This document shows positions 38,580-55,312 of a stretch of 64,000 nucleotides of DNA, piece after piece. The position numbers and the translations under genes are program-made. The stretch covers positions 71,572-135,571 of the forward strand of contig CAWIAU010000001.1 of NCBI GenBank assembly GCA_963834265.1, read 5' to 3'. The notes under the pieces were generated by a model. That model made no database searches. It was given only the letters and a program-made list of their open reading frames with translations, and was not told where the DNA came from. Origin of the DNA: an uncultured bacterium. GTDB taxonomy: Bacteria > Patescibacteriota > Saccharimonadia > Saccharimonadales > 2-12-FULL-41-12. Position 1 is the first letter of the stretch. Each line of letters opens with the position of its first letter.

Positions 38580-39956
38580 ATGGACACCAGCAGTCTATGG
38601 CAGGCAGTACTGGGCGAAATTGAACTGGGGGTGACACACGGTAATTACGTGACCTGGTTCAAAAATACCCGCCTGCTGCGCGTCAAAGAGAATGTGGCTG
38701 TGGTCGGCGCCCCGAACGTCTTTATCAAGCAACAGCTGGAGCGCAAGTTCAACGATCTCATAACTGAAACACTGGCCAAAAACGGAGTTCACCCTGAGCG
38801 CGTTGAGTATAAGATACTGCCGGCCTCCTCTTTGCATCGCAGGGTGGAGGACACATCCATAATGCAGAATCAGGAAAGTAACAGGGGCAGCAATGCCCCG
38901 CGTACGCCGGCTATTACAAGCAGCCTGACTCATACATACAGGCAGGGCCTGAATGAACGCTACACATTTGAAAATTTTATCGTAGGATCCGGAAACGAGC
39001 TGGCTTATGCCGCCTGTCAGGCAATTGCCGCTAACCCCGGCGCCAAGTATAATCCCCTTTTTCTCTATGGCGGTGTCGGAATCGGTAAAACACACCTGAT
39101 ACAGGCAGTAGGAAATGCCGTCGCAGGCAACAAAAAGGGTGCGCATATCGTATACGTCTCGACCGAGCAGTTCGTGCAGGAATTTCTCGACGCCATCCGG
39201 TATAAGAAGAATACTGACTTCGCCGGCTATTATCGCCGGGCCGATGTACTCATTATTGATGACGTACAGTTTATCGCCGGTAAAGAGAAAACTCAGGAAG
39301 AATTCTTCCATACTTTTAATGCACTTCATCAGGCCAATAAGCAGATCATTATCAGTAGTGATACCCGCCCAAAAGATATACCTACTCTGACTGATCGTCT
39401 GCGATCACGCTTTGAGTGGGGCATGGCAATTGATATGCAGGCACCGGATTTTGAAACACGCTGCGTGATCATCCAGAGTAAAGCCCAGAGTCACGGTCTG
39501 CAGTTACCGAATGATGTGACCGAACATCTGGCCGGTTATGTCCAGAACAACATCAGGGAGCTGGAGGGTGCTCTCAATCAGCTGATTGCCTTTTGTGATA
39601 TGCGGGGTCTCGCGCCTAATCTTGAAATAGCCGTAGCTCTGCTAGGCAACCAGAAAAGCCGGCCCAAGCACATATCTGCTCGTCAGGTAGTGGAGCGGAC
39701 AGCGAGACATTTCCAGATTCCTCTGGATGAATTACTGGGCCCAAAACGCGACAAGGATATTGTAGTGCCCAGACAGATTGCTATGTACATCCTTCGCAGC
39801 GAGTTGCACCTGAGCTTCCCGAAAATTGCGCGGGAGTTAGGCCGCAAAGACCACACGACCGCGATACATTCAGTCGAAAAAATAGAGAAAGAGCAGGCTT
39901 TTGACAGTGAAGTACGGGCAGCAATCGCTGAAATCAAGGAGCGTCTCTATGTGTAA
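38580..39956 (+). CDS. dnaA: Chromosomal replication initiator DnaA
   Basis: Walker A GGVGIGKTHL, Walker B/sensor LIIDDVQFIAGKEKTQEEFFHTFNAL, and the domain IV helix RQIAMYILRSEL..SFPKIARELGRKDHTTAIHSVEKI. Confidence 0.97.
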   Translation: MDTSSLWQAVLGEIELGVTHGNYVTWFKNTRLLRVKENVAVVGAPNVFIKQQLERKFNDLITETLAKNGVHPERVEYKILPASSLHRRVEDTSIMQNQESNRGSNAPRTPAITSSLTHTYRQGLNERYTFENFIVGSGNELAYAACQAIAANPGAKYNPLFLYGGVGIGKTHLIQAVGNAVAGNKKGAHIVYVSTEQFVQEFLDAIRYKKNTDFAGYYRRADVLIIDDVQFIAGKEKTQEEFFHTFNALHQANKQIIISSDTRPKDIPTLTDRLRSRFEWGMAIDMQAPDFETRCVIIQSKAQSHGLQLPNDVTEHLAGYVQNNIRELEGALNQLIAFCDMRGLAPNLEIAVALLGNQKSRPKHISARQVVERTARHFQIPLDELLGPKRDKDIVVPRQIAMYILRSELHLSFPKIARELGRKDHTTAIHSVEKIEKEQAFDSEVRAAIAEIKERLYV

Positions 39957-40288
39957 GAGCGCACGGTTTATGCTCGGAAAAGCAGGGGATGGGTTGTGTA
40001 TAAGCCGGTATTTCTGCACTGTTTTTATTTACCGGATTTATGTTCGTGGGATAAGTGCCGTTTATACCCGGACAAACCGGTTTTTTATACGAGCTCTTTT
40101 GCTCAGGAAGCAGATTTTTTCTGATCAGTTAAATCCTTTTTATGCACACTATCCACGGCCCTTACTACCTATTACTACTAACTTATTTAATTCATAGGAG
40201 AATACAATGAATCTCGTTACAATCAAGTCCTCTCATCAACGCTTTCACCAAACACTAAATAATACTCACAAGAAAGGATTGTAACGAG
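39957..40288. other. dnaA-dnaN spacer with DnaA-box-like sequences (possible second origin half)
   Basis: A 332-bp spacer, unusually long. TGTGTATAA (reverse TTATACACA) at 39995-40003 and cTATCCACg at 40149-40157. Confidence 0.3.
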
Positions 40289-41380
40289 ATGAAATTGCAA
40301 GTTACCCAGGAAAATCTGAACCGGGCACTCAACAACGTAGCCCGCGTTGCCAGCAATAGGAACGCTCTGCCTATTCTATCGAACATACTCATCAGAACCG
40401 TTGGCAACAGAGTATGTATCGCGGCCACCAATCTGAATATAGCCATCACCCACTACATCGGCTCAAAGGTCGCAACTGAGGGTTCGATAACTGTTCCTGC
40501 CCGCCTGATGCAGGACTTCATAGCCAGTCTGCCCAGTGAAGTAATTAACCTGAAACTGGAAGACAATAAACTACACATTGATACGGGAAAATACAGCTCG
40601 GTTATCAACGGAACTCCTGCTGATGACTACCCTGTCATGCCTTCGATCAAAGACGGTCAGACCTGGAAGATACCGGCAGCTACACTCAAAAAAGCTTTAC
40701 AGCAGGTAGTAGTAGCGGCCAGTAGTGACGATGCCCGCCCGATATTAACGGCGGTGTACTTTCACACAAAAGACAACATACTGTATATTGCCGCAACAGA
40801 TAGCTACAGACTGGCCGAAAAGAAGGTTATAAATCTGAAACAAGATGTTAGTCTGCTGGTTCCCGCATCAAGTGTGCAGGATCTGCTACGCATACTTGGT
40901 GATGGTGATGAGGAAGTGAATGTGATGCACGACGAGCAGCAAATATTATTCAGTATTGGCGACATAGAGCTGGTTACCCGCCTGATTGACGGAACCTATC
41001 CGGATTATCAGAAGCTTATTCCGGGCAAGTTCGAGACATCTGCCGAGCTGGCGAAGGCCGATTTTATAAATATTACCAAAGTATCAAGCTTGTTCGCGCG
41101 GGAAAGTGCAGGTAGTGTGACGGTAGAAGTGGATGACGCTAAGAATGAGGTAGGTATCCGGTCAATTGCCTCGCAACTCGGCGAAAACACTGCTAACGCT
41201 ACCGCGAAAGCCTCCGGAAACGGTACAATTACGCTAAATTCCCGCTATATACTGGATGCTCTGGGCAATCTGAGCGGGGATCAGGTGCAACTACGCTTCA
41301 ATGGCAAGCTGGAGCCTTCTCTGCTCACCAGTAAATCAGACGATACCTATATTCACGTTGTCATGCCCCTCAAATCGTAA
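40289..41380 (+). CDS. dnaN: DNA polymerase III beta sliding clamp
   Basis: 363 aa with N-terminus MKLQVTQENLNRALNNVARVAS and three-domain length. Lies in the dnaA-dnaN-recF context. Confidence 0.95.
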   Translation: MKLQVTQENLNRALNNVARVASNRNALPILSNILIRTVGNRVCIAATNLNIAITHYIGSKVATEGSITVPARLMQDFIASLPSEVINLKLEDNKLHIDTGKYSSVINGTPADDYPVMPSIKDGQTWKIPAATLKKALQQVVVAASSDDARPILTAVYFHTKDNILYIAATDSYRLAEKKVINLKQDVSLLVPASSVQDLLRILGDGDEEVNVMHDEQQILFSIGDIELVTRLIDGTYPDYQKLIPGKFETSAELAKADFINITKVSSLFARESAGSVTVEVDDAKNEVGIRSIASQLGENTANATAKASGNGTITLNSRYILDALGNLSGDQVQLRFNGKLEPSLLTSKSDDTYIHVVMPLKS

Positions 41381-41453
41381 ATGCCCTGTAAAGCAGTAAA
41401 GCTCACAGTATAATAGCTTTAATGGCGGACATTTAAATTACTAACACTATTTT

Positions 41454-42515
41454 ATGATTTTTACTGATATTCGTGTACAGAATTTCCGATCGTACAATGA
41501 TGCTTCATTCGAGATCGGACCGGGGGTTACGATTGTTGTAGGTCCGAATGCAGCCGGTAAAACGAATCTGGTTGAAGCACTGATGCTGGCGGCTATCGGC
41601 AGTTCCTACCGCGGCCATGAAGCTCTGATAGCACACGGCAGCGAATGGGCGCGCATCGATGTTCATACTAGCGACAACCGTGCCCGTAGTATTAAGCTCC
41701 GCACATCATCGGCGGGGCGTTCCGATAAAGAATTTGAGATTGACGACAAAATATACAAACGATTACCTGTCCATCAGCACCAACCGGTTGTACTATTTGA
41801 ACCGAATGATCTGCAGCTGCTGAGAGGTGAACCGGGAGGCCGGCGCGACTTTGCCGATAACCTACTGGAGCAGCTGAACGATGGATATAGCACACTAAGA
41901 AATCAGTATAAGAGAATCGTTTCTCAGAGAAACGCTCTGCTAAAGCAAGTGAATCATGACAAAATGCAATTGTTTACGTGGAATGTAAAATTAGCAGAAC
42001 TAGCAAGCAATATTGTTCAAAAGCGGCTGGGACTGCTCGGGGAAATTAACAAAAAACTCAGTAATTTATATAGCGAAATTTCCAAACAGCCAACGAACAT
42101 CCGGGCGGTCTACAAAAGCACTATTGATCCCGAGAATTATGCCTCATCCCTGCTCAATCGTCTGGAGAAAGACTCTGAACTTGATTATGCTCGTGGCTTC
42201 ACCGGTCACGGCCCGCACAGGGACGACATTACCTTCTTGTTCGAAGAACAAAGCGTGGTTGCTCAGGCTTCACGCGGAGAGGTCCGTACCCTATTGTTAT
42301 CACTTAAAATTATAGAGCTGGAACTACTCGAGGAGCGCCACGGTATCAGGCCGCTTTTACTGCTCGACGACGTCTTCAGTGAGCTGGATGGTACCCGCCG
42401 CAAAACCCTGACGAATTTTCTGAAAAATCACCAAACCGTCATCACAACTACAGACGCCGACGTTGTCATAAAACACTTTACCAAAAAATGCACCATCATT
42501 CCGCTGCAGAGATAG
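41454..42515 (+). CDS. recF: DNA replication and repair protein RecF
   Basis: Walker A GPNAAGKTNLVEAL, signature-like region, and Walker B LLLLDDVFSELD. Confidence 0.93.
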   Translation: MIFTDIRVQNFRSYNDASFEIGPGVTIVVGPNAAGKTNLVEALMLAAIGSSYRGHEALIAHGSEWARIDVHTSDNRARSIKLRTSSAGRSDKEFEIDDKIYKRLPVHQHQPVVLFEPNDLQLLRGEPGGRRDFADNLLEQLNDGYSTLRNQYKRIVSQRNALLKQVNHDKMQLFTWNVKLAELASNIVQKRLGLLGEINKKLSNLYSEISKQPTNIRAVYKSTIDPENYASSLLNRLEKDSELDYARGFTGHGPHRDDITFLFEEQSVVAQASRGEVRTLLLSLKIIELELLEERHGIRPLLLLDDVFSELDGTRRKTLTNFLKNHQTVITTTDADVVIKHFTKKCTIIPLQR

Positions 42516-42547
42516 TAATTACAGCAAGTCAGGGACTCCCGGAACTA

Positions 42548-42578
42548 TTGACAAAAAGTTTATCTTTAGGTAAACTTT
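42548..42578 (+). promoter_or_regulatory. Sigma70-type promoter (-35 TTGACA, 17 bp, -10 TAAACT) with embedded 8-bp inverted repeat operator; implies a leaderless phd mRNA
   Basis: ttgaca at 42548-42553 and taaact at 42571-42576. The ATG at 42583 lies 6 nt after the -10. AAAGTTTA (42555-42562) and TAAACTTT (42571-42578) are inverted repeats spanning the spacer and the -10. Confidence 0.55.
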
Positions 42579-42582
42579 AAAC

Positions 42583-42813
42583 ATGAATACAGCACCACTA
42601 CAAAACACGGTAAGTCTCAAAAATCTTCGGGAGCAACTCCCGAAGTATATTGATGCTGTCGCAAAGGGCCAAAGCTTTACTGTTGTCAAGCGCTCCAAGC
42701 CGATCTTTCAGATCAGTCCCGTGAACGACGAGGGAAGCTGGCAAACAATCGCTGACTTTACGCAAATTAACGATAGGGGCGTGCCGGCCGACGAAGTATT
42801 GGAGCAACTTTAG
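42583..42813 (+). CDS. Phd/YefM-family antitoxin
   Basis: 76 aa. SLKNLREQLPKYIDAVAKGQSFTVVKRSKPIFQISPV is the typical Phd/YefM N-terminal fold pattern. Confidence 0.7.
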   Translation: MNTAPLQNTVSLKNLREQLPKYIDAVAKGQSFTVVKRSKPIFQISPVNDEGSWQTIADFTQINDRGVPADEVLEQL

Positions 42814-42825
42814 AGATAAAGAGTA

Positions 42826-43071
42826 ATGGCCGACAAAATCAAGAAAATTCTGGCTAAATTGTCTCCAAAAGAACGAGAGACAGTAAAATTGCTCATTATG
42901 AGGGTGAAGCTTGATGATTTGGAGGGTCTTAATATCAGACAGCTTAAGGGGCATAGGGATCTGTTTCGCGTTCGAAAAGGACACTTAAGAATTGTATATC
43001 GCAAAACGCCCGCTGAATTCCTGATCGTCCGAGTTGATAGGCGAAACGAGAAAACGTACAAAGACCTCTAA
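42826..43071 (+). CDS. RelE/ParE-superfamily toxin
   Basis: 81 aa. LKGHRDLFRVRKGHLRIVYRKTPAEFLIVRVDRRNEKTY matches the RelE/ParE core (R..G..R.(I/V)Y......i.i..v..R...Y). Confidence 0.7.
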   Translation: MADKIKKILAKLSPKERETVKLLIMRVKLDDLEGLNIRQLKGHRDLFRVRKGHLRIVYRKTPAEFLIVRVDRRNEKTYKDL

Positions 43072-43140
43072 TATAACTTCTGCGCATTGGCGCCAGCCTA
43101 AAAAGAAGCTTTTTGCGGCCAGCATTAAGCCTTGGTGCTT

Positions 43141-43266
43141 AAAACACTAACTAATTTTCTGAAAAATCACCAATCCGTCATCACAACTACAGACGCCGAC
43201 GTAGTCATAAAACACTTCACCAAAAAATGCACCATAATCCCTCTTACGCGAAAATCATCCGACTAG
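43141..43266 (+). pseudogene. recF: Orphan recF 3'-end remnant (divergent duplicate of 42402-42515)
   Basis: In frame it reads KTLTNFLKNHQSVITTTDADVVIKHFTKKCTIIPLTRKSSD*, against the recF C-terminus KTLTNFLKNHQTVITTTDADVVIKHFTKKCTIIPLQR*. Identity is 98/111 nt. An in-frame TAA lies immediately upstream (43138-43140 region), so it is not translated as part of a gene. Confidence 0.85.
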
Positions 43267-44804
43267 TATAAAAAATTAATCGGTAAATTGGTTGCGTCGA
43301 CATCCTTTTCCAGCAGTAATTTGATGAGCTGGTCCCTGGATTTCTGCTTAGAGGCAGAACTTGCGCCATTTTTATCGCTGTCATACATCATACTTGCAGC
43401 TATGCCCTCGCCGGCTTCGGTAAATTTAACTGTATCGTGATCAATAGTCAGGTATATCGGTAATACCGAATCCAGCCTTGTTCCGATCTGAGACTTGTCT
43501 CCAAGCGCATAATGAAAGTTTTTATCGACCTCGTCGTCTTTTTCGTTATTCAGAACAAAATAAAGGCGGCCGTCAACACAGTTTATGCGCAAAATATTAT
43601 TGAATTCATTGTTGTATATTTGGAATGATGCAGTTTTTGATACTGAATATTTATATATAGCGTGCCCGCCGTCTGCAAGGTAGTAAAAGCTCTCATTATC
43701 ATTCGTGCATACTTGCTGAGCTGTATTTTTTACGCTGGGCAAGGGGCTTGTTTTGCCGTTTGATTCAAGAGTGTAAATTTTCTGTTCCTGGTCTCCGCTT
43801 AACAGGATAATTAAATTATCGCTTGTTCCGGCTGACAGACTATTTATGTGCCATTTGGGGCTTAGCTTAGTGTTTTTTGTCACTTTTTTTTGTTTTTTCT
43901 CGACAACAATTATTTTTGGCGCATGATCATCTCCGTTTTTGTTGTCTGCCTGATTATTTGCCGTCGCTTCGTCGCTGGTAGTGGAAAAAATGTATACAAA
44001 ATTACCAGTATCGAATACCTGAGCACTCTCTGGCTTCTCGTCTGAGAATAATTTTTTATCAATATTCAGCGCCTGATAACTCTCTGCTTTTGAATCGATT
44101 GTAAAATAAAGGACAGACTTCTGAGTGTCAAAAACTGCAAAACCTGCTTGCCGCGAAGCAGAGAAAGTGCGATCAGATACGTTGCCCGTAAACTCCTTGA
44201 TAGTCAAAGGGGCAGCATTTAGTGCTTTCTGGCTTCGTTTTTTTATCGTGAGACCGTTGCTGTCAACGCTGGCCGCCAAAAACTCTCCCCCAAAAGGCCT
44301 CAGAGCGAGAGAAGTGGTTTCCAGCGTTTTATAATAATTCTCATCTCCGGAATCGGCCGCCGCTGCAGTTGTGCCCGGACTTGGGTCAATGAGGCCGGGA
44401 GAGCTCGGTCCGCAGGAATAATAGACCGGAGTACCGGTTTGATCCTGTTTGGCGCAGCCAAGGCTGTGCTTTCCTAATAATATGCTATTTCTCGGCGGAA
44501 TTGTTTCGGCCAATAGTTTGTGTGACCATAATGGCCCCAGCTTTTTCCGGTATAGCGATTGGCTGTCTTTGCTAACTATCTCTACTTCATAGTCTCCGGA
44601 TCCAAGGAAAAATCTTTTCGACGAGTTCTTTAATTCGGTTTTTTCTTCAAACCCCTCTTTGCGTACGTATACGGTCCTTTCTTCATCGCCCGTACTTTCT
44701 ATCGTCAGCATGCTATGTGTCAGAAAAAAATGTAATAAAAATATGGAGGCAAGCAGCAGGATAGATAGTCGTACTCTTCGGTTCCTTAGTAGCCCGGGAT
44801 TCAT
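43263..44804 (-). CDS. Hypothetical membrane-anchored extracytoplasmic protein (last gene of the T4SS-like operon)
   Basis: 513 aa with an N-terminal TM (LSILLLASIFLLHFFL) and a beta-rich remainder. No family recognised. Separated by 10 nt from the upstream hydrolase gene. Confidence 0.5.
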   Translation of the reverse strand: MNPGLLRNRRVRLSILLLASIFLLHFFLTHSMLTIESTGDEERTVYVRKEGFEEKTELKNSSKRFFLGSGDYEVEIVSKDSQSLYRKKLGPLWSHKLLAETIPPRNSILLGKHSLGCAKQDQTGTPVYYSCGPSSPGLIDPSPGTTAAAADSGDENYYKTLETTSLALRPFGGEFLAASVDSNGLTIKKRSQKALNAAPLTIKEFTGNVSDRTFSASRQAGFAVFDTQKSVLYFTIDSKAESYQALNIDKKLFSDEKPESAQVFDTGNFVYIFSTTSDEATANNQADNKNGDDHAPKIIVVEKKQKKVTKNTKLSPKWHINSLSAGTSDNLIILLSGDQEQKIYTLESNGKTSPLPSVKNTAQQVCTNDNESFYYLADGGHAIYKYSVSKTASFQIYNNEFNNILRINCVDGRLYFVLNNEKDDEVDKNFHYALGDKSQIGTRLDSVLPIYLTIDHDTVKFTEAGEGIAASMMYDSDKNGASSASKQKSRDQLIKLLLEKDVDATNLPINFLY

Positions 44805-44814
44805 ATTGCCTCCA

Positions 44815-47685
44815 TTACTTAAACCCTACATGAATATGGTGATTATGATCGTCTATTACTCCGCCGTAGGTGGTATCGCAATCGGTAGGCTGGAGATTAT
44901 TAACACATTTTTGTCCGCTGGGCGGATACTTCCAGATCAGCTCGTCGATTTTGAGAGCCTGCCGGTTCCTGTATAGATAGGAGTACAATTTATCACCATC
45001 AGCGGTATGTCGCGAGTCGCCATTACCATAATAGCCGATATCGATTGCTCTGCCGGAGTTGTGCAGGCTATCGCCGCCCGAACAGCCTCCATGATCGGTT
45101 GCCATGGCATTGATCGGCAGCTTGACGCCGCTATGCTCTGCCATTGATACCAGGCCCGCCAGAGCTGTTTCTGTCAGGCAGTTTTGCACATCATCTTTTT
45201 GATCGGCTGCCGGCCCGTAATTCCCGTAAACAATTTTGGGGTGGTTCAGGGCTTTTTGTATCAGCTCAGCTTTCGTCCCGGAACTAACCGAGTCAGATCC
45301 TCCGCTTCCGCCGGCACCACTACCGCAGCCACCGGCTGACGGATCGGCAGCAGGAGCGGCACTCCCCGTACCGGCAGTTCCGCCCCCAAATCTATTGAGC
45401 CACGTCGTCGCGTTCGGAAGTCGTATGTTCATTTCTCTGTCGAAACATGCTGCCTGACCGGCTCCGGGCAAGCAGGGAACCTCAAATTTTTCCAGCCAGA
45501 TCCTTGTTGCCTCTGCAATGTTAGTCGACGCCTTGATAGGATCGAGCACGGTGGATTTATAGCCGGAGCTTTCCAGCTCTTTTTTCATATATTCCAGCTG
45601 AATTCCAAGATCGCTTTTGTCTTTGCCTTTGCTGGCCGCATAAGCTTCCAGTGCGGCCCTTCGGGGCCCCACCCACTGGATAATCCCATAGGCGTCACTC
45701 TCCGGGCCTACGTATGCTGCTTCCGGATCAAATCCGGATTCCTGCTCAATATTTCCCATGATACCTGCGGCCTGCGTGTCGTTGAATCCCATTTCCGTAA
45801 TCAGGTAATTCCATATCTGTTCTTCGTTGCCGTTACCTGTCAGAACGGTCGAGCTGCTGCCTGCAGAACAGCAGGCGGCATTGATGGGCTCTGTGGATGT
45901 GGCTGTCTGCGAGGTACTGCTTTTAAGCTTACTGATTCTTTTGGTTGATTTCTCTATGTTGGCCTGAGAAATATTGCCGTCATTTACATCTTTTTCGACT
46001 CTGTCAATCGTAGCCTTGACCTGCTCATCCAGACTGCCGAAAGAGGAGTTTTTATTAAACAAGGGCATGTCGGCACCAGCCTGAATAGCCAGAGAGACAG
46101 CTTGAGGCGGACTGTATTTATCTACAATAGCTCTCATGTTGGCGATTTCATCGGTAAAAACAACCCCGTCAAAGCTAAATTCATCCCGGAGCAATGCGTA
46201 GGCACGCTCATTTATGCTGGTCTGCTCATGTGCTCGTCCTTCGGTCAGGCCGGGCACAACCAAGTGGCCCATCATAACGCCGCTTTCGCCTTTTTTCATC
46301 AGAGTTTTATAGGGAACAAGATCGCTGCTACGCAGGGAGCTGATATTAGGAGTTTTGACCACAGCGGTATGTGAATCGCCGTCGGCTCGTCCATGACCCG
46401 GAAAGTGCTTGAATACAGGCGTCAGGCCAGCCGATCGCATGCCTGCAGCGAAAGCACCTGCTTTCTCGGTTATTTTTGCTTCATCGCCGGAGAATGCCCT
46501 GTTGTTGCCGCTTATTACGGAGTTGCTGCCATTATCAATGTCTACTACAGGAGCATAATTTACAGTTACGCCCAGTTCAGCAAGTTTGTCTCCGTACTCT
46601 TTGGCTGATTTCTCCACTTGTTCAGTCGTCATTCCGCCTAAAGTCTTGGCGTTTGGGTATGCTCCTGTCTGGCCTTTGAGTCGCTGAACACTACCTCCCT
46701 CTTCGTCTGAAGCGATTAGTAGCGGCGTATCACCGGCAGCTGCCTTGATTTCGCTAATTGCAGATTTGCTATAGAGTGAAGTTGACTCATTGGTCAGCAT
46801 AACGCCGCCGACTTTATACTTCCGAACAACGTCAATCATCTCTTGTTTGTTGTTTGTGGCGCCTACGAACATCATCTGCCCGATTTTTTCTCTCAGGCCG
46901 GGATCCTCGGCCTCAGTGCTTGCGCGCGCACTGCTCCCGCCGCCTCCGGCTTGTGCTATTTGGGCCATTTTATCCATGATGGCTGTGGCTTCGCTCAGAT
47001 AGGCTGCATTGCCCTCCGCTCCTTCGCTAACATATGCTTCAACAAAGCCCTGCATGTCTCCGGCATCTATTGCTGACCCGTATTGGCTTCTTATGTAGGC
47101 CGCCATGTCGCCGCCGCCATTCGCATTTTGATTCTCAGCCGCAGTATGATCGACACTTGCTTTCATAGAAGTCCATTTGTACCAGTACGGAATAGCGCCG
47201 CCGCCATCAAAATGGGGCTGACTGGCAGTGGCGCTTCGGCCAAAGGCGTTATTGCCCTTTTGAACATTGTTATCACCTGGGTTGGCAAGGCTCGACTCGT
47301 TTTGGGCAATCGCAACCAATAAGAAAGGATTGATGTTAGAGTTTTGAGCTCCGTCAACAATCGTTCCACCGTGCCCGCTTAATTTACTCGAAGGATTGGT
47401 TTGTTGAATATATGTGTCTATTGCTGATGCCATAGCGACGGGAGGCAGGTTTGGAAAAATCGCACCGGTAGGGGTCCCTGAACCAGGGGCAACTGTGCTT
47501 ACCGGCGTTGCTGCGCCGCCGCAGGGGTCAAGGTCGTAGTAGTTAATTTCTCTGTCAAATATTTTCTTTTGTTCGGGAGATAAGGCCCGGACGACAGGAC
47601 CTCCACAGCTGACAACCATAAACGTGACAAGGATTAATAATGTAAGACAACGTACAAAAAAATTCTTTCTGTTCATTTGCCGCAC
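44815..47685 (-). CDS. Secreted multi-domain peptidoglycan hydrolase (lysozyme-like, GH3 NagZ-like, phage-tail-lysozyme-like, LAS/M15-type peptidase)
   Basis: N-terminal TM/signal. FLLVAIAQNESSLANPG (lysozyme-like E-S). GH3 motifs: KIGQMMFVG, SDEEGGSVQRL, KHFPGHGRADGDSH. GIMGNIEQESGFDPEA..YGIIQW (phage tail lysozyme-like). C-terminal HNSGRAID ... HHIHVGF (Hx6D ... HxH zinc site of LAS peptidases). Confidence 0.75.
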   Translation of the reverse strand: MRQMNRKNFFVRCLTLLILVTFMVVSCGGPVVRALSPEQKKIFDREINYYDLDPCGGAATPVSTVAPGSGTPTGAIFPNLPPVAMASAIDTYIQQTNPSSKLSGHGGTIVDGAQNSNINPFLLVAIAQNESSLANPGDNNVQKGNNAFGRSATASQPHFDGGGAIPYWYKWTSMKASVDHTAAENQNANGGGDMAAYIRSQYGSAIDAGDMQGFVEAYVSEGAEGNAAYLSEATAIMDKMAQIAQAGGGGSSARASTEAEDPGLREKIGQMMFVGATNNKQEMIDVVRKYKVGGVMLTNESTSLYSKSAISEIKAAAGDTPLLIASDEEGGSVQRLKGQTGAYPNAKTLGGMTTEQVEKSAKEYGDKLAELGVTVNYAPVVDIDNGSNSVISGNNRAFSGDEAKITEKAGAFAAGMRSAGLTPVFKHFPGHGRADGDSHTAVVKTPNISSLRSSDLVPYKTLMKKGESGVMMGHLVVPGLTEGRAHEQTSINERAYALLRDEFSFDGVVFTDEIANMRAIVDKYSPPQAVSLAIQAGADMPLFNKNSSFGSLDEQVKATIDRVEKDVNDGNISQANIEKSTKRISKLKSSTSQTATSTEPINAACCSAGSSSTVLTGNGNEEQIWNYLITEMGFNDTQAAGIMGNIEQESGFDPEAAYVGPESDAYGIIQWVGPRRAALEAYAASKGKDKSDLGIQLEYMKKELESSGYKSTVLDPIKASTNIAEATRIWLEKFEVPCLPGAGQAACFDREMNIRLPNATTWLNRFGGGTAGTGSAAPAADPSAGGCGSGAGGSGGSDSVSSGTKAELIQKALNHPKIVYGNYGPAADQKDDVQNCLTETALAGLVSMAEHSGVKLPINAMATDHGGCSGGDSLHNSGRAIDIGYYGNGDSRHTADGDKLYSYLYRNRQALKIDELIWKYPPSGQKCVNNLQPTDCDTTYGGVIDDHNHHIHVGFK

Positions 47686-50600
47686 CTATTTGCCATAGGA
47701 GCAAAGTCCCAGTGCCATGATTCTGCGCTGTACTGCTTGATACCGAAATCTTCCGAATTTTCTCTCATCCATTTGTATTGGGGTCCGTCATGGGTCATTC
47801 TGGCCGAGCAGACCTGCTGTCCGTTTGCTTCAAATCCGCCCATGTCCGCAAAATCTATCGCCCAGCCTGCCTGATGGGGCGATCCACCCGGCGTGGCGCA
47901 TTGAACACCTGTACCTGATCCCTGACAGGAGTCAGGCAAGCGGAATGAACTGCTTGATGACAGATTTACGCCATCGTCTTTTGCTTTTTTGGCAAGCGCC
48001 GACCAGCCGCCGGACACCCGGGCTTCAACCACAGCACCGCCGTGAGTTTTTGTGCCATTAGGGTCTTGTCCTTCGCCCGGAATGTCAGGAATTTCGCACA
48101 GACGCAGCTTCAACGGGCCAGACTCTTTTTTGAACTCACCGCTATATTGGCTGGTTACGACGCCAAGATCATTTGTGCCTGCTGCGCAGCTTAGGTTATC
48201 CGAGCTTTTGCCAAGATCTGTAATATCGACTGTTGCGCCGGCGCCCCCTGTGGTTGTGCTTGCGGCTGCAGAAGGGGCCGGATCGTAGCCCAGTTCTTTG
48301 CAGGTGGCTATGGTGTCCGGGTCATCAGGGTTGCCGTCATAACATGTAACTTCCTTCATCTTCCCTGTATAGAAGACAAAGAGAATGATTCGCTTCCAGT
48401 TTGGATCACTGAGATCATCACATTTGCCGTCCCTGTATTCCGGGCTCCGGGGATCTGTTTCGTCATCAGGCACAACATCCCATAGTCCGGAATCTTTGCT
48501 GATTATAACACCGAAACAATTTAAGGCTCGTTTCGGATATTTATCGCCGGTGCTACTCAGGATGCCTGCTGCTTTATCCGCGTTATCATAGGGGTCCTGG
48601 TAGGCGGGATCATCGAACAGGTCACCCGGGATTCCATAATCGGGCAGGGCACTCCAGTCATAATCCGGACCAGCAGCATGTGCCACAGGGCTGAATGCCG
48701 GAAAAAGGCCGGTGGCAAATGTATTTATATTAGCCAGACTGGTGGCAATGTTCGTAATGTTCTGACCGGGATCAGTGCTGCTGCTGTCAATAAAACTGGA
48801 GGCTACGGACCGGTGGTCATAGACGTCAAATATTCGCCCGGAGAAGCTTTTGGCCCGGAACTCCTGCTGGCTGGCAAGTTTTTGTTCTTTCTCCAGAACT
48901 GCGCTGGCTGCCGGAGTTCTCTCGATGCCACCCACACTGCGGGCAGCAGTACCGGCACCCGCTTTGCTGGCCCAGGCCAGAACATTGCCCCCACGCGGAC
49001 CTGCCAGCGGTGCCTCGAATGTCACCTTGTCTGCCGCTGCCTTCTCGGCGCGGTTCATGACCTGCCCGAGGACTACGGTAGTAGCGGCAGCACTGGAGCC
49101 GGCAATAAGCACTTTTGCGGTCCATCCAACCGGTGGTGCTGCCCAAATCAGACCGACACCTAATATGCCCTGAGCAATAAGTCCCGGCGTACTACAAACT
49201 GTATCTCCTACACTGTCTGCTATAGCGTCTACATCCGACTGACCTTTCAAGGAGAATATACCTTTTTCTTCATCCGACAGATCCTCTCCGCTGGGCTTGA
49301 CCTTGCCCGAGAGAGCTTGCAGCGCCCTGCCACCGAAGACATCTCTGCCGGTGTCATCTTCCAAAGCATAGCCCCAGTCGCCGGGATCGGCGGCGAGTAA
49401 TCTGCCGTCTGTAACGTTGGCCCCTTTGGCCATCTGATGTGTTGTCTCGACTGTGGCAAGTGCTACATCAGCGCGGTCGGCTTGCGTACTAAATCCCCGT
49501 ATCTCCCTGATTATACAGGCCGCCGCCGTAAAAGTAAGCGCTATGGATAATCCTGTCCGTTTGGAGTTGAGTGTTTCTTTGAGGCCTGCTTTGGCTGCGG
49601 CGCCCTTGATTCCGACTTTGCTTTGCTTGAATTTCGCGTATCTTTCTTCGCCCGCTGCCTTGGCGGCCGCCTTGGCTTTTTGCCTGTCACTTCGATTATT
49701 GGCTAATCTTTCTTGCTTAGTTTTAAAATATCTGGTCACCGGACTCAGCAAGCCGGGCTGGTTATAAAATATTTTGAATTCGCGTATACGCAGGGCATTG
49801 AGCAGCGTACCGTCAGCTGCCTCCCTGATCGACGTGGTATAGAACAAGTCAACGATTTTGGAACCATTGAATGTTGATGGATCCAGTTTAATTTTTAAAA
49901 ATTTCCCGTCTATATCAACATCCGTGGCGTCCAGAAACGGATAGTTCTTCAGAAATGATGCTTTCCGCTCCTCCATAGTGGCAATACCAATTGTATTCTT
50001 GTTTACGTCAGTGTCTACGGTTACGCCCCGGATACCGTTTGTCATCTTGTTAGTTTCGCCGAAGTCGAAGCCTGCTACAGTTAGCTTAGCTGTAGTCCTT
50101 TTGACCATCGCGCTGCCGAGTGCGCCGACGCGGGTTTCGCCGATATTGCCGGTTCGGGCAAATCGTATTAAGCCCCGCATTCCGATAGATGAGTCATTCT
50201 CATTGCCGAAGTGTGCTTTTTGCAGTATCTGCGACAGATGAATTATCTTAAGAGGCCCTACGCCTATAAAGGCTCCGAACATAAATACCGCTGCGATTAC
50301 TCCGACTATACCGCCAGCACCTGCTTTCTTCTTCTTGCTGCCAAAAAGCGCTGCGCCTGCCGAGGAAAGTGCCAGAGCCAGCTTGGCCGAAGGAGGTAAA
50401 AATTTATCAGCGACATTCAGGCCGTCACCGATCAAGCCCTTTTCTGCTTTGCCCACTATGCCTTTGGCTCCGCTGCCGGCAGCTTCCTCCCCGCTTTTAA
50501 GATCTCCGCTACCGCGCGGTTTTTTCGAATGCCGGCTCATATCACCGGGCCTGGTTGAACTGCCACCGTCAGTATAGGGGTTGGCGTCGGGTGTTCCGGC

Positions 50601-51125
50601 GGCAGTATTCGTGCCGTTATTGCTGTATTTGCCAGGATCAAATGTATTACCAGATAAATTCGGGTCAGCTTGGTCGTCATAGACAGGTTTGGCCTGCTGC
50701 ATAGGCCTGTCGTCGCTCAGATTCTGGTCTTTGGTGTAGCGATCCATTTCTTCGGGCCGTGTTGAGCTGCCGGCATAGGGGTTCCCGGTTGGCGTACCGG
50801 AAGCGGTATTGTTTGCACCATACCCGTCAGGCGACGGCTTATACTGTTGCAAGTTTCCGCCACTACTGCCGTGATCTGCTGAGCTGGCAGGTTTTCCTGA
50901 CATAGGCGAAGCACTACCCGGGCCCTGGCTTTTCCGGTGGCTACTCATGTCGCCGGTCTGGGTTGAGCTTCCGGTATAGGGATTGGGCGTAGGTGCGCCG
51001 GAGGCCGTATTATTCGAGCCGGCATTACTTGCAGATAGCTTATTTCGATTCAGGCTCCCCCTGCTCTTGTTAGGGTCTCCGGATCTTGCTTCCCCTCTTT
51101 TGCCTAAAGGTGTGAATTTCGCCAT
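47673..51125 (-). CDS. Giant membrane protein with repeat-rich disordered N-terminus, TM segments and a C-terminal VanY/M15B-like D,D-peptidase domain
   Basis: 1150 aa with three N-terminal repeats NNTASGxPTxNPYxGSSTxxxxMxxxxK. Hydrophobic segments include GGIVGVIAAVFMFGAFIGVG and GILGVGLIWAAPPVGW. C-terminal GGSPHQAGWAIDF ... ESWHWDF matches SxHxxGxAxD ... ExWH of VanY-type peptidases. Confidence 0.65.
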   Translation of the reverse strand: MAKFTPLGKRGEARSGDPNKSRGSLNRNKLSASNAGSNNTASGAPTPNPYTGSSTQTGDMSSHRKSQGPGSASPMSGKPASSADHGSSGGNLQQYKPSPDGYGANNTASGTPTGNPYAGSSTRPEEMDRYTKDQNLSDDRPMQQAKPVYDDQADPNLSGNTFDPGKYSNNGTNTAAGTPDANPYTDGGSSTRPGDMSRHSKKPRGSGDLKSGEEAAGSGAKGIVGKAEKGLIGDGLNVADKFLPPSAKLALALSSAGAALFGSKKKKAGAGGIVGVIAAVFMFGAFIGVGPLKIIHLSQILQKAHFGNENDSSIGMRGLIRFARTGNIGETRVGALGSAMVKRTTAKLTVAGFDFGETNKMTNGIRGVTVDTDVNKNTIGIATMEERKASFLKNYPFLDATDVDIDGKFLKIKLDPSTFNGSKIVDLFYTTSIREAADGTLLNALRIREFKIFYNQPGLLSPVTRYFKTKQERLANNRSDRQKAKAAAKAAGEERYAKFKQSKVGIKGAAAKAGLKETLNSKRTGLSIALTFTAAACIIREIRGFSTQADRADVALATVETTHQMAKGANVTDGRLLAADPGDWGYALEDDTGRDVFGGRALQALSGKVKPSGEDLSDEEKGIFSLKGQSDVDAIADSVGDTVCSTPGLIAQGILGVGLIWAAPPVGWTAKVLIAGSSAAATTVVLGQVMNRAEKAAADKVTFEAPLAGPRGGNVLAWASKAGAGTAARSVGGIERTPAASAVLEKEQKLASQQEFRAKSFSGRIFDVYDHRSVASSFIDSSSTDPGQNITNIATSLANINTFATGLFPAFSPVAHAAGPDYDWSALPDYGIPGDLFDDPAYQDPYDNADKAAGILSSTGDKYPKRALNCFGVIISKDSGLWDVVPDDETDPRSPEYRDGKCDDLSDPNWKRIILFVFYTGKMKEVTCYDGNPDDPDTIATCKELGYDPAPSAAASTTTGGAGATVDITDLGKSSDNLSCAAGTNDLGVVTSQYSGEFKKESGPLKLRLCEIPDIPGEGQDPNGTKTHGGAVVEARVSGGWSALAKKAKDDGVNLSSSSSFRLPDSCQGSGTGVQCATPGGSPHQAGWAIDFADMGGFEANGQQVCSARMTHDGPQYKWMRENSEDFGIKQYSAESWHWDFAPMANRCGK

Positions 51126-51155
51126 AATCTATACTTTCAAGTGACCCCGGGCTGG

Positions 51156-53072
51156 TTACATGCCAGGGGACAGCCGGTTCTCCAGATCTATTGTGCCGCT
51201 AGCTCCGCTTATTTCGCCGGTCTGCTGGATTTGTCTGACCTCGTCAGGGTTAGTGGTTATGAGTGTCTGTTCAGTCGGACTGGCGGTGATCTGGATGTGT
51301 ACGTGGTTCTGACCGGCAAAGAACAGCCCCTGGCCGACGGGGAACTGGCTGAGGCGCTTACGTTCCTCACTGGTGAGCCGGAAGACATCAGCCAGCACAT
51401 CAACGGCTGACGGCGACTGTTTAAGCAGAATTTGCATGCTGGAGTTAGCCACGATGGCGCGGCCCATACGACTACCCATAAAGTCCTCGACATCCTGAGT
51501 GATAGTCGTTAGTCCCATATTGTATTTGCGGCACCGCTTGGCAATACTGAACAGGAAGTTAGCACTATCCTCGTATTTCATCAGTTGCCATGCTTCATCA
51601 ACTATCAGCAGGCGCTTGCGCTGATCGCCCTTTGTCTTGTTCCAGATGTGATTCAGGACAATATACATGGCTACGGGCCGCAGCTCGTCTTCCAGATCGC
51701 GGATATTAAATACCACCAGCGGATTATTGATATCGATATTGCTTTGCTGAGAAAAGATACCGGCGAAAGTACCGGTCGTATATTTGCGTAATCTTTGGGC
51801 CAGTTGTGGGCCGGTGTTGCCCATATGCAGCAATGTTTCGTACAAGTCGTTAATTGTCGGCGGGATTGAGCTATGCGTCAGCGGATCATTGGTAATCCCG
51901 GCCTTGGCATAGGTTTCGATAAGTGCCGCATCCAGATCAGCTTCTTCTACCGGAGTCAGAGCCGGCATGACCACTCCGGTCCCGCCTTGCATCTGAGCCT
52001 GAGCGCCACCCATCATCAGACGCAGCAAGCCGTGTAAAGTTATCAGGTTGCTGCGAAGAGCATTATCGGCTTCTTCGGTGTCAACAACCAGGGGCAATTC
52101 AAACGGATTAATGCGGGTAGGCGAATTAAGACTCAGCTGTACATATGCTCCGCCGACAGCCTCACACATGCGCTGATACTCATTCTCGGGATCTATGATG
52201 AAGATTTCTGTGCCCAGCATCATGCTGCGGAGTGCCTCAAGTTTGACGGTAAAACTTTTGCCGGCACCGGCTTTGGCAAACACGACAGAATTGCCGTTTT
52301 CAAGCGTGAAGCGGTCAAAAATCACCAGACCGGAGTTATGCATGTTTATGCCGTACAAAATGCCATTCTCCTGTGTCAGGTCGGCACTGGTGAAAGGAAA
52401 GCTGGTAGAAATAGCACCGGTATTCATATTGCGTCGAATCTGTAACTGATCAGTAAACTGCGGCACAGTACTGTTGAGCCCCTGTTCCTGCTGCGAGCTG
52501 GCCGGCTTGGAATAGACGAGTTGCTGACCAAAGATCGATTCAATCTTATGGGTCACAAACTCCAGCTCTTCCATCGAGCCGGCATAGACCGTAAAATACA
52601 ATCCAAAGCGGAAAAATCTCTCTTCGCCAACCTGCAACTTATCCCGCATTTCCTCGGCGTCCAGAATGGCATTTTCTTTTGCAGGGTCGCGCACATGACC
52701 CTTTTCGGCGTCCATCATACGGCCGGCTTCCAGCTGGGCTACCTTTTTTTTCAGATTCTCCAGTACCACCTGACTTTCGACAGGATAGATAAACATCGAA
52801 AGGTCAATAACCTCGTCCAGGTTCACCATACTGCTGAGCCAGCCCGTACTGAGCGAACGAGGGTAGCCGTAGACAAAATAAGTGCGGGCATATCGCGTTC
52901 CGAGCTGAAAGTGACTATTTGAAAATTCTATGGAGCTGGGGGCGATAAAGTCACGTAGAGCCGTAATTCCCTTTTGAAAAGCAGTGGAGACCTCCTGCTG
53001 CTCCCGGTTGCGCTGCGCCTGTGCCAGAGCCGCCGGATCAAGCTGAGGCTTGTCTTTTTTGAACACTCCCAT
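51156..53072 (-). CDS. virB4: Type IV secretion ATPase, VirB4/TrbE/PrgJ family
   Basis: Walker A FAKAGAGKSFTVK and Walker B RKRLLIVDEAWQLM. The N-terminal region FIAPSSIEF..YARTYFVYGYPRSLSTGWLSSMVNLDEVIDLSMFIYP is typical of monoderm VirB4 homologs. Start moved to the ATG at 53072 (MGVFKK), which has AGAGG 9 nt upstream. Confidence 0.85.
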   Translation of the reverse strand: MGVFKKDKPQLDPAALAQAQRNREQQEVSTAFQKGITALRDFIAPSSIEFSNSHFQLGTRYARTYFVYGYPRSLSTGWLSSMVNLDEVIDLSMFIYPVESQVVLENLKKKVAQLEAGRMMDAEKGHVRDPAKENAILDAEEMRDKLQVGEERFFRFGLYFTVYAGSMEELEFVTHKIESIFGQQLVYSKPASSQQEQGLNSTVPQFTDQLQIRRNMNTGAISTSFPFTSADLTQENGILYGINMHNSGLVIFDRFTLENGNSVVFAKAGAGKSFTVKLEALRSMMLGTEIFIIDPENEYQRMCEAVGGAYVQLSLNSPTRINPFELPLVVDTEEADNALRSNLITLHGLLRLMMGGAQAQMQGGTGVVMPALTPVEEADLDAALIETYAKAGITNDPLTHSSIPPTINDLYETLLHMGNTGPQLAQRLRKYTTGTFAGIFSQQSNIDINNPLVVFNIRDLEDELRPVAMYIVLNHIWNKTKGDQRKRLLIVDEAWQLMKYEDSANFLFSIAKRCRKYNMGLTTITQDVEDFMGSRMGRAIVANSSMQILLKQSPSAVDVLADVFRLTSEERKRLSQFPVGQGLFFAGQNHVHIQITASPTEQTLITTNPDEVRQIQQTGEISGASGTIDLENRLSPGM

Positions 53073-53166
53073 CACCAAAGCCTCTTGCTTTGCGCAAATA
53101 GCGAATAGCAATTAGTAGTCAGCTGGTTACCGTAAATTCCCGATTTCAAATTCCTGATAACTTTTC

Positions 53167-54123
53167 TCATTGAATGTTTTTTTCCAGATTAGGCTGCGGA
53201 GCAAATCCGGTGCCCTTAGTTACAATCGGAGCAGTCAGATCATCAAAGTTTTTTAGCTGTTGCCTTGTAGCAGTATCGGGGTTATAGGTATCGTAGTACA
53301 GCTCGATTAGTTCCTGCGTGTCCAGAGGCAGGCCCTGGATACCGCACTGCCCCAGCCCGCCCAGTACGGCTTGTACGCGGTTGCGTAGTTCGGTCTTGGC
53401 ATCTTCCAGCGTTTTCTCGTTTATCACTATGTGGGCGGGAGTATTGTCAAACAATCCCATGACTCCGCTGAGCAGATTTTTGCTGGAAGTCAGTGCCTTT
53501 TGCTCCTGTATTTTTGGAAAAAACGGAATGACAACATAGAAATGCTTATCCATAATATTGGTCTGGGCCGCCAGATTATCGATGTAATTTAAATAGTCAT
53601 CCATCAATAATGCCAGTAGCATATTGTCGTGCTCAGTACGGATTTTATCCAGCTTTTCGATATAAGGGCGCAAGTCAATTTTTTGTGAGCGGATAAAGAT
53701 CTGAATCGGGAAATATAGTGAGTTCAGGAAGCCCTGATAACCATACTCAACGCCCTCGCGTTCCTCGGGACTCATCAGATCAAAATTGATAGACTGAACC
53801 ATTATTACTGAGCGAAATGAACCGTCATTCATGATCACGATACCATCACGGACTTCGGCGATCTGCAAATTATTCTGTGTACTGTTGGGGTTGACTGATT
53901 TGCCGGGGGTAGCGGGGGAAATAATGGGCGCATTGGGGTCGCCCGGAATGAATGAACCGGGTTGCAGGTCCGGTGCGAAGTTCGCACGCGGATCCGGCGC
54001 AAAAACAGGCTGAGATACCTGAGGGCCGGGGTCTGTGTATACTGCCCCCCCGCCAAGAGGAGGCAATGAAGCCTGCCCCGCAGGCTGTGCGATAGTCTGT
54101 TGCTGGGGATCGTTAGGATTCAT
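53167..54123 (-). CDS. Hypothetical T4SS-associated protein resembling a VirB4 N-terminal domain without ATPase motifs
   Basis: 318 aa. After a P/Q-rich N-terminus: LQIAEVRDGIVIMNDGSFRSVIMVQSINFDLMSPEEREGVEYGYQGFLNSLYFPIQIFIRSQKIDLRPYIEKL. This parallels the N-terminal layout of VirB4-like proteins. No Walker A or B motif. Confidence 0.4.
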   Translation of the reverse strand: MNPNDPQQQTIAQPAGQASLPPLGGGAVYTDPGPQVSQPVFAPDPRANFAPDLQPGSFIPGDPNAPIISPATPGKSVNPNSTQNNLQIAEVRDGIVIMNDGSFRSVIMVQSINFDLMSPEEREGVEYGYQGFLNSLYFPIQIFIRSQKIDLRPYIEKLDKIRTEHDNMLLALLMDDYLNYIDNLAAQTNIMDKHFYVVIPFFPKIQEQKALTSSKNLLSGVMGLFDNTPAHIVINEKTLEDAKTELRNRVQAVLGGLGQCGIQGLPLDTQELIELYYDTYNPDTATRQQLKNFDDLTAPIVTKGTGFAPQPNLEKNIQ

Positions 54124-54161
54124 TTTCTAAGCTATAAGTTCCCACACTTTTTAGGGGTGAT

Positions 54162-55265
54162 TTAACGGAGCGAAATAATCACTTCGTTTCTATCGCTTAA
54201 CTGCTGGCTTTTTTTGGCTTGCCGTGCGATAGTTTCTACGCTCAAATCATCGTTCTGTGCCAGATCAAGTATAACAGGAGACTGCGAAGTTGTCATCGTG
54301 CTTGAGGTTTGCGCCGGACCTGTTATTACCTCATGCGTTCCGGTCTCCGCGGAACTCGGTTTCGCGGCTATGGTTGGCGGTGCGACCGGCCCGGAAACCG
54401 GTACTGTGCGAAGCCGCCCGTATGCTTCGTTCCCGACCTGACTCTGCGCGCGCAACTGAGCACTCAATTGTTGTTCTGTGGCATCCGGTGCCGCAAAGGC
54501 CGGCGGTAATGAGTCGCCCGCCGCAGAAGTCGGCAACGAAATGACCGGTGTATGATGCTGCGGTGGTACAAAAGGTACCTCTGGTTGCTGTACGGATTCC
54601 AATGACTCACCGCGCCGGATGCGTTCCATCTTTGCCAGGCTTTCATCACGCCGGATGACGCTGCTGGACTGAATCATCTGGTCGAAGTTAGCGGCGATCG
54701 AGTTCGCTCCGGTGTCCATTACATCGTGGACCTGATTTACGTCAAAATCCGGCACAGATTTTGTCATCATTGATGGGGTGATTAATCGGTCTCCCATACC
54801 GCTAAATCCCATATCCACGGCGGCAGCCGTCAGACTCGAGTTTTTGATCGCCCAGCCACGACTGTCGATTGTCTCTGCCAAAGCCCTCAGCCGGCTCGTA
54901 ACTTCGTTCTGGCTCAGATTATTGGTAAGCTGATGTTCAATAATTTTGGGCACAGTAATTGTAACGAGTTCTTTTACTCCGGACTGGTTCCATATCCGTC
55001 GCTTGGGCTTGATATAAAACCGCATTTTAGCCAATACCCATACCTCAGTCGGCTGATCCTTGCTCCAGGGAATGGCCAGAAATGCGCCCAGAAATGCCGG
55101 TGGCAAAAATATTGCCAGCATCCAGGCGGCATTCTTGGTTATCGCAAAGAAACTCAAATACAAATTTATCGCCGCAATGGCGCCAAATATAAATTGTTTG
55201 AGTGTCAAAGGTCCGAGGAATTTGTCCTCAGCCTCAATGTCCTGCAGAACTTTGTACGTAGCCAT
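54162..55265 (-). CDS. PrgI-family (VirB3-like) T4SS membrane protein with long C-terminal extension
   Basis: MATYKVLQDIEAEDKFLGPLTLKQFIFGAIAAINLYLSFFAI plus a second TM helix, as in PrgI-type proteins of monoderm T4SSs. About 250 additional low-complexity residues follow. Confidence 0.55.
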   Translation of the reverse strand: MATYKVLQDIEAEDKFLGPLTLKQFIFGAIAAINLYLSFFAITKNAAWMLAIFLPPAFLGAFLAIPWSKDQPTEVWVLAKMRFYIKPKRRIWNQSGVKELVTITVPKIIEHQLTNNLSQNEVTSRLRALAETIDSRGWAIKNSSLTAAAVDMGFSGMGDRLITPSMMTKSVPDFDVNQVHDVMDTGANSIAANFDQMIQSSSVIRRDESLAKMERIRRGESLESVQQPEVPFVPPQHHTPVISLPTSAAGDSLPPAFAAPDATEQQLSAQLRAQSQVGNEAYGRLRTVPVSGPVAPPTIAAKPSSAETGTHEVITGPAQTSSTMTTSQSPVILDLAQNDDLSVETIARQAKKSQQLSDRNEVIISLR

Positions 55266-55312
55266 ATAACTTTTCGGTAATCCTTATGCTATTTTATCAC
55301 GACCCGGTCCTA

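Follow-up and report, generated by a model that had tools for sequence, protein, structure and literature searches.

Why should a bacterial gene end twice? In the 64-kb stretch of DNA analysed here, which we call the window (part of contig CAWIAU010000001.1, from an uncultured bacterium), an intact recF gene is followed by a toxin–antitoxin (TA) pair of the Phd/RelE type, and behind this pair the last 37 sense codons of recF occur once more. The body of recF is absent upstream of this second copy (43141–43266), the remnant, and a repeat search found the two recF ends to be the only long dispersed repeat in the window. Which of the two ends belonged to the resident gene, how did the other arrive, and how did a TA pair come to stand between them? 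The locus is laid out as follows.

41454–42515, plus strand: recF, intact, 353 amino acids (open reading frame (ORF) list; Pfam SMC_N, 6.6e-17; 5330 RecF homologues)
42402–42512, plus strand: copy 1 of the repeat, formed by the final 37 sense codons of functional recF (98/111 against 43141–43251)
42402–42413, 42414–42494 and 42495–42512: blocks L, core and R of copy 1, with identities to the remnant of 9/12, 78/81 and 11/18
42516–42543, no strand: left spacer of the insert, without homologue by blastn against all fetched loci
42548–42576, plus strand: promoter of the TA pair, TTGACA-17-TAAACT (promoter scan, 10/12 match)
42583–42813, plus strand: antitoxin of the Phd/YefM family, 76 amino acids (NCBIfam TIGR01552 phd_fam; Pfam PF02604)
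42826–43071, plus strand: RelE/ParE-like toxin, 81 amino acids (PHROG 1213; Pfam PF05016; PDB RelE3 3bpq)
43073–43140, no strand: right spacer of the insert, without homologue, tRNA-like remnant or significant fold
43141–43266, plus strand: displaced recF 3' remnant, 37 codons followed by KSSD and TAG (repeat alignment; layout without the TA pair in relatives)
43263–44804, minus strand: convergent gene of 513 amino acids (tblastn against the relatives L003 and L039; Pfam matches on the downstream genes)

The two copies are identical at 98 of 111 nt in the recF reading frame, and 12 codons differ between them, ten synonymously and two not (T to S, and Q to T through two base changes). On recount, the coordinates, the identity and the codon classes given in a first-pass annotation of this DNA proved exact. 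The same annotation had described four additional codons (KSSD) by which the remnant continues to a TAG at 43264–43266, overlapping the stop codon of the convergent gene at 43263–43265, and we confirmed these as well. By the method of Nei and Gojobori there are 10 differences at 26.2 synonymous sites and 3 at 84.8 non-synonymous sites (pS 0.38, pN 0.035; Fisher p = 1.8e-5). If the end of recF had been duplicated in situ and the remnant had then decayed neutrally, non-synonymous sites would be expected to change at about half the synonymous rate, and the probability of three or fewer non-synonymous differences in 85 sites is 2.5e-5. Because so small a number is improbable under decay, both copies, judged by their substitutions, have evolved as constrained protein-coding sequence during nearly the whole of their divergence. 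On the same counts they must descend from two functional recF alleles, which upholds the origin that the annotation had proposed instead of a decaying duplicate. The remnant itself has barely decayed (at most about 3 of 85 non-synonymous sites changed), and the insertion is therefore recent. Homology sets in abruptly at 43141, the preceding 30 nt being 37% identical and containing a stop codon; the left limit of the repeat is sharp, and its right limit is the end of the gene.

The window was assigned to Saccharibacteria (Saccharimonadales) through its RecF homologues, the best of the 5330 being annotated as a Saccharimonadales RecF, and the C-terminus of the protein agrees with the family consensus. 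No conspecific genome was found in the collections searched, where the nearest RecF is 75% identical. Three relatives lack the cassette, and in all of them recF lies beside or across the convergent gene: in L002 this gene is found 14 nt past recF, in L003 a longer recF tail (...IIPLELTKKASTNN) overlaps it by 17 nt, and in L039 the two genes also overlap. From this layout it follows that the intervening 739 nt are an insertion, as the annotation had assumed for the TA pair, and that the tail of the remnant and its overlap look like the resident recF end. The convergent gene is native and syntenic in relatives.

A recF end separated from its gene was also found in another metagenome-assembled genome of the Saccharibacteria. 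At L037:744–956 (GCA_964393085.1, CAYMSK010000076.1) there is an isolated recF 3' fragment, covering RecF residues ~306–350 and a tail, which overlaps the same convergent gene by 38 nt. It is preceded not by the recF body but by a minus-strand gene for a membrane-anchored protein of 203 amino acids, with which the contig starts. Displacement of the recF end thus seems to be recurrent in this phylum. This fragment came from a search for recF remnants among predicted proteins, in which a word-index search returned a contig-edge partial only and an exhaustive search returned seven short proteins (P0243 and P0253 among them), of which five were followed to their loci; of these five, L037 was the genuine isolated fragment. 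L035 and L039 proved to be frameshifted recF genes, and L036 is a partial gene at a contig edge. L040:3402–3695 (recF residues 291–353) adjoins, on its 5' side, markedly GC-rich DNA with unrelated ORFs; its contig is probably chimeric, and we did not count it.

L001, the nearest relative, has a TA pair of another kind at the end of recF (L001:7062–8246): the gene of a PIN (VapC-type) toxin begins 2 nt past the recF stop on the opposite strand, together with a Phd-type antitoxin. After these comes one more small ORF on the minus strand, MazF-like by eye only, which is cut off by the end of the contig. The 1.2 kb that remain after recF in this contig contain no recF remnant.

The differences between the two copies in the window are clustered. 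Three lie in the central 81 nt and ten in the 30 flanking nt, and a permutation test scanning all breakpoint pairs gave p = 0.009 for the clustering. The core, 42414–42494, is 96% identical (78/81), with 25 of 27 third positions the same, as against 9/12 for the first 12 nt and 11/18 for the last 18 nt. Synonymous differences number 2 in 17.3 sites in the core and 8 in 8.8 sites in the flanks. For comparison, the same core block is 52–80% identical between recF genes of different genera, and the flanks of the window copies are no more alike than recF pairs from different genera. All three mismatches of the L block fall on third codon positions; since flank mismatches lie at such positions, the flanks are genuine coding DNA of a distant allele. 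At its left edge the repeat shares only five identical nucleotides (AAAAC). Long identity is confined to the centre, 42414–42494, and even there the identical runs do not exceed 28 nt. On this pattern of substitutions the repeat is a mosaic whose core has a recent common origin and whose edges are deeply diverged.

The mosaic changes several points of the first-pass annotation, which had taken copy 1 as a foreign recF end acquired by homologous recombination from a related strain and the remnant as the end of the resident allele. A related strain does not suit as the donor, for the flanks are as far apart as those of different genera, against 96% identity in the 81-nt core. The assignment of whole copies as either foreign or resident may fail too, since in a mosaic the split may not be all-or-none. 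What stands is that a xenologous end came with the TA pair, and that the tail of the remnant and its overlap with the convergent gene look resident; the left part of the remnant may be foreign. Nor can the event have been an ordinary replacement by homologous recombination. Two-sided replacement leaves no second gene end, and therefore a single crossover, a site-specific event or an illegitimate joint is required.

To one account of this kind we give about an even chance of being right: a foreign piece of 739 bp was inserted into the recF 3' end by one reciprocal, Campbell-type crossover within the core. It would have comprised the promoter, the genes of the Phd-family antitoxin and of the RelE-like toxin, the short spacers and, derived from a distant lineage, a recF 3' end. 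The incoming DNA, arranged L'-core-R'-TA, would have paired through its recF-like part with the resident recF and crossed over somewhere within the 81 nt at 42414–42494. Copy 1 would then be made up of the resident L, the core and a foreign R with its stop codon, so that recF stays intact, and the remnant would be made up of a foreign L, the core and the resident R with its KSSD tail, still fused to the convergent gene. We favour a crossover in the core because a differing L, a common core and a differing R are exactly what it predicts. If such a unit cycled in and out through the core, the core would be resampled from each host and the private flanks would diverge further, giving a mosaic of the kind observed. 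The intermediate may have been circular or of the ends-in type, and the crossover was probably driven by homology (through RecA, after natural transformation) and not catalysed by an integrase. The L037 fragment beside the same convergent gene and the different TA pair after recF in L001 also speak for this account, as do the layout in the relatives without the cassette, the mobility of the TA family as a unit and the negative searches for a recombinase described below. Under every model, a selective filter explains why an architecture with a replacement end survives: recF and the convergent gene abut or overlap, and therefore only inserts that bring a replacement recF end keep both genes intact.

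A single homologous segment that leaves the insert between two hybrid copies is also what Campbell-type insertion-duplication and homology-facilitated illegitimate recombination produce, and the L/core/R mosaic has this form: the flanks differ between the copies and the crossover zone is common to both, at a small number of sites. These processes are known from laboratory constructs and experiments. To our knowledge, no natural TA cassette with a gene end as its portable homology has been described.

Several observations weigh against a crossover in the core. The evidence for the mosaic amounts to 13 differences, and the limits of its blocks were set post hoc, with the p value corrected for the scan. 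Gene conversion after the insertion could equally create an identical core. By codon usage, copy 1 fits the host better than the remnant does (ln ratio 3.7, a weak test), and in the same weak test its R block is host-like too, which is opposite to the prediction for this block; nor does the result favour a wholly resident remnant. The L037 remnant starts about 12 codons earlier than the one in the window, so that there is no fixed boundary, and it gives direct support to neither a homology-driven nor an integrase-driven mechanism. No donor, empty site or circular form has been seen. A homology of 81 nt with identical runs of no more than 28 nt is a poor substrate for RecA. Lastly, in the e14 prophage of Escherichia coli the same architecture, at icd, is made by an integrase. 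Two further comparisons did not separate the copies. Synonymous sites are saturated against the nearest relative, and when the recF ends of relatives were used to tell which copy is native, the relatives proved too distant: third positions were likewise saturated and the informative sites split 3 versus 2. Sliding identity against L001 was flat at 65–80% along recF, without a break that would mark a recombination breakpoint.

What did the insertion bring? The 625 nt between the copies encode the two TA genes only. These are co-directional, with the antitoxin first and a gap of 12 nt, an order kept in 29 loci. The antitoxin passes the cutoff of NCBIfam TIGR01552 phd_fam (24.5 bits, cutoff 20.8) and matches Pfam PF02604 below its gathering cutoff (22.9 bits against 29.8; E = 7.6e-5). 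The toxin matches PHROG 1213 'RelE-like toxin' over its full length (E = 5e-7), Pfam PF05016 (ParE_toxin) under the cutoff (16.6 bits against 23; E = 0.012) and, marginally, RelE3 in the PDB (3bpq, E = 0.065). Its AlphaFold2 model shows the order H-H-E-E-E, but at a pLDDT (predicted local distance difference test) of 59 the model is poor and its Foldseek matches are noise. The toxin has 168 homologues, all of about 81 amino acids and up to 86% identical to it, which form a highly conserved family of the Saccharibacteria and Patescibacteria. An 8-nt inverted repeat, AAAGTTTA/TAAACTTT, overlaps the promoter and is a putative operator; it is conserved in the family, and the promoter motif recurs 5' of the antitoxin in more than 20 loci. 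In gene order, the 12-nt gap, the small size of the genes and a palindromic putative operator over the promoter, the pair resembles type II systems of the Phd/YefM-RelE/ParE kind; it departs from them in that the toxin is only marginally similar to the curated RelE/ParE models. The pair may act as an addiction or stabilisation module.

Within the window, the part conserved in this family is 42544–43072. The two spacers, 42516–42543 and 43073–43140, had no homologue when they and the cassette were compared by blastn with all fetched loci. In 43060–43145 there was no significant fold (z = -0.13), no inverted repeat was reported and attC is absent. That the right spacer is a decayed tRNA-Gln remnant was considered and rejected, as an nhmmer profile built from 23 such remnants gave no match there and blastn found no homologue. 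When the window and four loci were scanned with Rfam, one tRNA was the only match.

In other genomes this TA family has a different neighbourhood, for in none of 29 other loci does it adjoin recF. At ten or more loci the TA unit is bounded by tRNA 3' ends on both sides: a tRNA-like end (...CCA) lies 6–11 nt before the -35 box, and a tRNA-Gln 3' remnant, starting at the T-loop, is found 0–60 nt past the end of the toxin gene. Four loci have the toxin's TAG codon fused to the TTCGA of the tRNA remnant. Four genomes share a block of ~615 nt, from remnant to remnant, that is 90–94% identical, and the neighbouring cassettes differ or are reordered: another cassette stands downstream of the TA pair in one of the four and upstream of it in another. 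The TA family thus has the behaviour of a modular cassette, with displaced target-gene 3' ends as its junctions, and in the window an insertion of this style is seen at another target, one that encodes a protein.

Downstream of tRNA-Gln(ttg) in other Saccharibacteria such cassettes form arrays, at L008:4448–7303 and also in L006, L007, L011, L012, L013, L020, L022, L025 and L027. The arrays hold the Phd/RelE family, TA-like pairs recognised by eye and, in L012, a helix-turn-helix (HTH)-Fic protein found by Pfam, and each of their cassettes is followed by a displaced tRNA 3' remnant beginning at the T-loop. In L008 the order begins with tRNA-Gln, an AbrB/SpoVT-like and PIN-like pair (by eye) with an 85-amino-acid ORF, and remnants; it continues with the Phd/RelE pair and a remnant, and then with an 82-amino-acid ORF, a ribbon-helix-helix/RelE-like pair (by eye) and a remnant. 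L015, whose toxin is 84% identical and whose TA pair is among the most similar, has a different repeat, of 99 nt, which stands three times between cassettes (2154–2252, 2661–2759 and 4324–4422). This repeat is not a tRNA and has no Rfam match; a short ORF (YSQD.TLPFEL...) is conserved on the minus strand of the repeat, and a related motif is found upstream of the TA pair in L031.

Searches for a recombinase near these cassettes were negative. Among ORFs of at least 180 amino acids within about 6 kb of the TA-family loci, no integrase was found in ten scanned individually. A bulk scan of 88 such ORFs, limited to the 25 commonest families, found no recombinase recurring in two or more of them, a scan that a single integrase could escape. 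In the window, 14 ORFs were scanned and had no recombinase domain; about 40 others lay outside that scan. For a phage- or plasmid-like carrier, the TA profile and the RecF C-terminus had no confirmed match in IMG/VR. We found no account of TA or tRNA cassette arrays in Saccharibacteria when the literature was searched.

Could the insert be the relic of an element that once had an integrase? In this explanation, which is possible but which we consider unlikely, a larger integrative element, whose attP carried a recF 3' end, integrated site-specifically at the left edge of the repeat (~42402), and an internal deletion later took away the integrase and spared only the addictive TA pair. Its best precedent is e14, and likewise phage 21, which in icd brings a replacement 3' end and displaces the original one (icdC) to the far junction. 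In E. coli K-12 (NC_000913) the end of icd and icdC agree at 153 of 165 nt, with nine synonymous and two non-synonymous codon differences. As in these phages, the direct repeats that flank our insert are the 3' end of the target gene and the gene is intact, so that replacement of a gene end on insertion is already known from e14 and icd and is seen here at recF in a Saccharibacteria genome. The sharp left boundary of homology and the right boundary at the gene end suit an integrase, and so does the T-loop at which all tRNA-Gln remnants flanking the TA family begin, a classical position of integrase crossover; for tycheposons, partial tRNAs left behind by tandem integrations are on record. However, e14 is 15 kb long and has its own intE and xisE, and its differences from the displaced end are spread evenly, whereas the insert in the window is 0.74 kb long, has only the TA pair as cargo and is flanked by a mosaic repeat. 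No tyrosine or serine recombinase is encoded in the 625 nt between the copies, and none was found among the scanned ORFs of the window or recurrently near the TA-family loci. The units with the toxin stop fused to a tRNA remnant are already minimal, and repeated deletions of such precision are unlikely. A crossover at the left edge also does not predict a core that is 96% identical between saturated flanks.

Alternatively, the event may have been one-sided, a homology-facilitated illegitimate recombination, and this we regard as rather doubtful. A related donor that already had a TA pair past its recF would have entered by natural transformation, with the donor recF as the homologous anchor, and its far end, past 43140, would have been joined illegitimately inside the recipient recF at codon 317, the product being selected as both genes stayed intact. 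Saccharibacteria are reported to be naturally transformable, no recombinase was found in the ORFs scanned, the 3' flank of recF gathers TA pairs in L001 too, and the different left boundary of the L037 remnant fits random joints. But such an event predicts a copy 1 derived from the donor all the way from an upstream crossover to its stop codon, and a wholly resident remnant, and the 96% core then needs an extra event; if the core itself had been the anchor, the L blocks should be identical, yet 3 of their 12 bases differ. A donor with recF followed by this TA pair is absent among the 29 TA loci, and the topology of the duplication requires bridging between sister chromatids. A tandem duplication of the recF end in situ, with the TA pair inserted between the copies and later divergence or gene conversion, would account for the near-identical central 81 nt as a young duplication or a conversion tract. 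It is highly improbable, as the flanks differ at every synonymous site sampled and yet the protein is kept, against the chance of 2.5e-5 calculated above, and all three mismatches in the L block are on third codon positions. Scarcely credible, in turn, is a chimeric assembly from two strains that occur together, one having the TA pair after recF and the other lacking it. The source is derived from a metagenome and such repeats can mislead assemblers, but a false join is expected in shared k-mers (the identical runs of the core reach at most 28 nt), and the sequence at the junction 43140|43141, 12 nt before the core begins, is not shared. Moreover, the gene spacing of the window recurs identically in a Logan contig of 19.5 kb, which was assembled independently but may come from the same sample.

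The tRNA-Gln arrays invite comparison with two systems of stacked units. According to the tycheposon paper on Prochlorococcus, successive integrations leave tandem partial tRNAs, and the TA-family arrays downstream of tRNA-Gln, with units followed by displaced tRNA 3' ends, are similar; older cassette units appear to be moved outward as new ones come in. Tyrosine or serine recombinases are part of tycheposons, whereas no recurrent one was found near the TA arrays. Here the units are single operons of ~0.6 kb, and the target in the window is a protein-coding gene in place of the tRNA that is the tycheposon type of target. Integron cassettes are likewise small single-operon units without a recombinase of their own, stacked and reordered between genomes. 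Unlike them, the TA units have no attC-like palindrome, no IntI was found, the junction is the 3' end of the target gene, and each unit has its own promoter.

It is tempting to speculate that the Saccharibacteria have a class of minimal, recombinase-free TA cassettes (~0.6–0.75 kb), each with the 3' end of a conserved host gene (tRNA-Gln in many genomes, recF in the window) as portable homology, which spread by transformation and homology-driven insertion-duplication, restore their target, stack and are reshuffled. We put this forward as a tentative and, on balance, unlikely generalisation; if true, such cassettes would functionally resemble an integron or tycheposon system without an integrase of its own, and the significance of the locus would be considerably greater. 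If the insert is only the relic of an integrase element, it is an ordinary case of a textbook phenomenon in a new phylum. In itself the locus is a clean footprint of accessory DNA entering the very compact genome of an ultra-small epibiont without harm to overlapping ends of essential genes, and the mosaic core indicates a crossover zone, something that natural insertions seldom reveal. Taken with the tRNA-Gln TA arrays, in which no integrase was found, the locus suggests that gene flux in Patescibacteria may proceed by homology and transformation and not by recombinases encoded on the elements.

Upstream of recF lie two further genes of the same neighbourhood.

38580–39956: dnaA, upstream of dnaN and recF
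40289–41380: dnaN, between dnaA and recF

When 38580–42515 of the window is compared with L001:3269–7059, RecF is 75% identical in amino acids as against 91% for DnaA and 90% for DnaN, and the intergenic regions dnaA–dnaN and dnaN–recF are nearly unalignable.

On the other side of the remnant, the convergent 513-amino-acid gene heads a lysozyme/type IV secretion system (T4SS)-like cluster that spans 43263–62293. Its start is syntenic in relatives, and the downstream cluster genes, being syntenic there as well, are therefore native. The cluster includes two proteins of ~1000 amino acids, the first with GH3 and Phage_lysozyme2 domains and the second with a weak VanY match only, a VirB4/TraG-like ATPase (51156–53111), a PrgI-family protein (54162–55265) and a T4SS pilin (61493–62293).

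The window contains a second TA pair at 26534–27247, a MazE/AbrB-type antitoxin (PF04014) with a PIN toxin (PF01850). It lies between an ABC-transporter operon and glycosyltransferase genes, and a flanking repeat is absent. Finally, in the regions 11300–12625 and 14843–15270 there are three tandem repeats of 153 nt (11973–12431) with related units in two neighbouring genes, a composition pointing to probable repeat-domain surface proteins.

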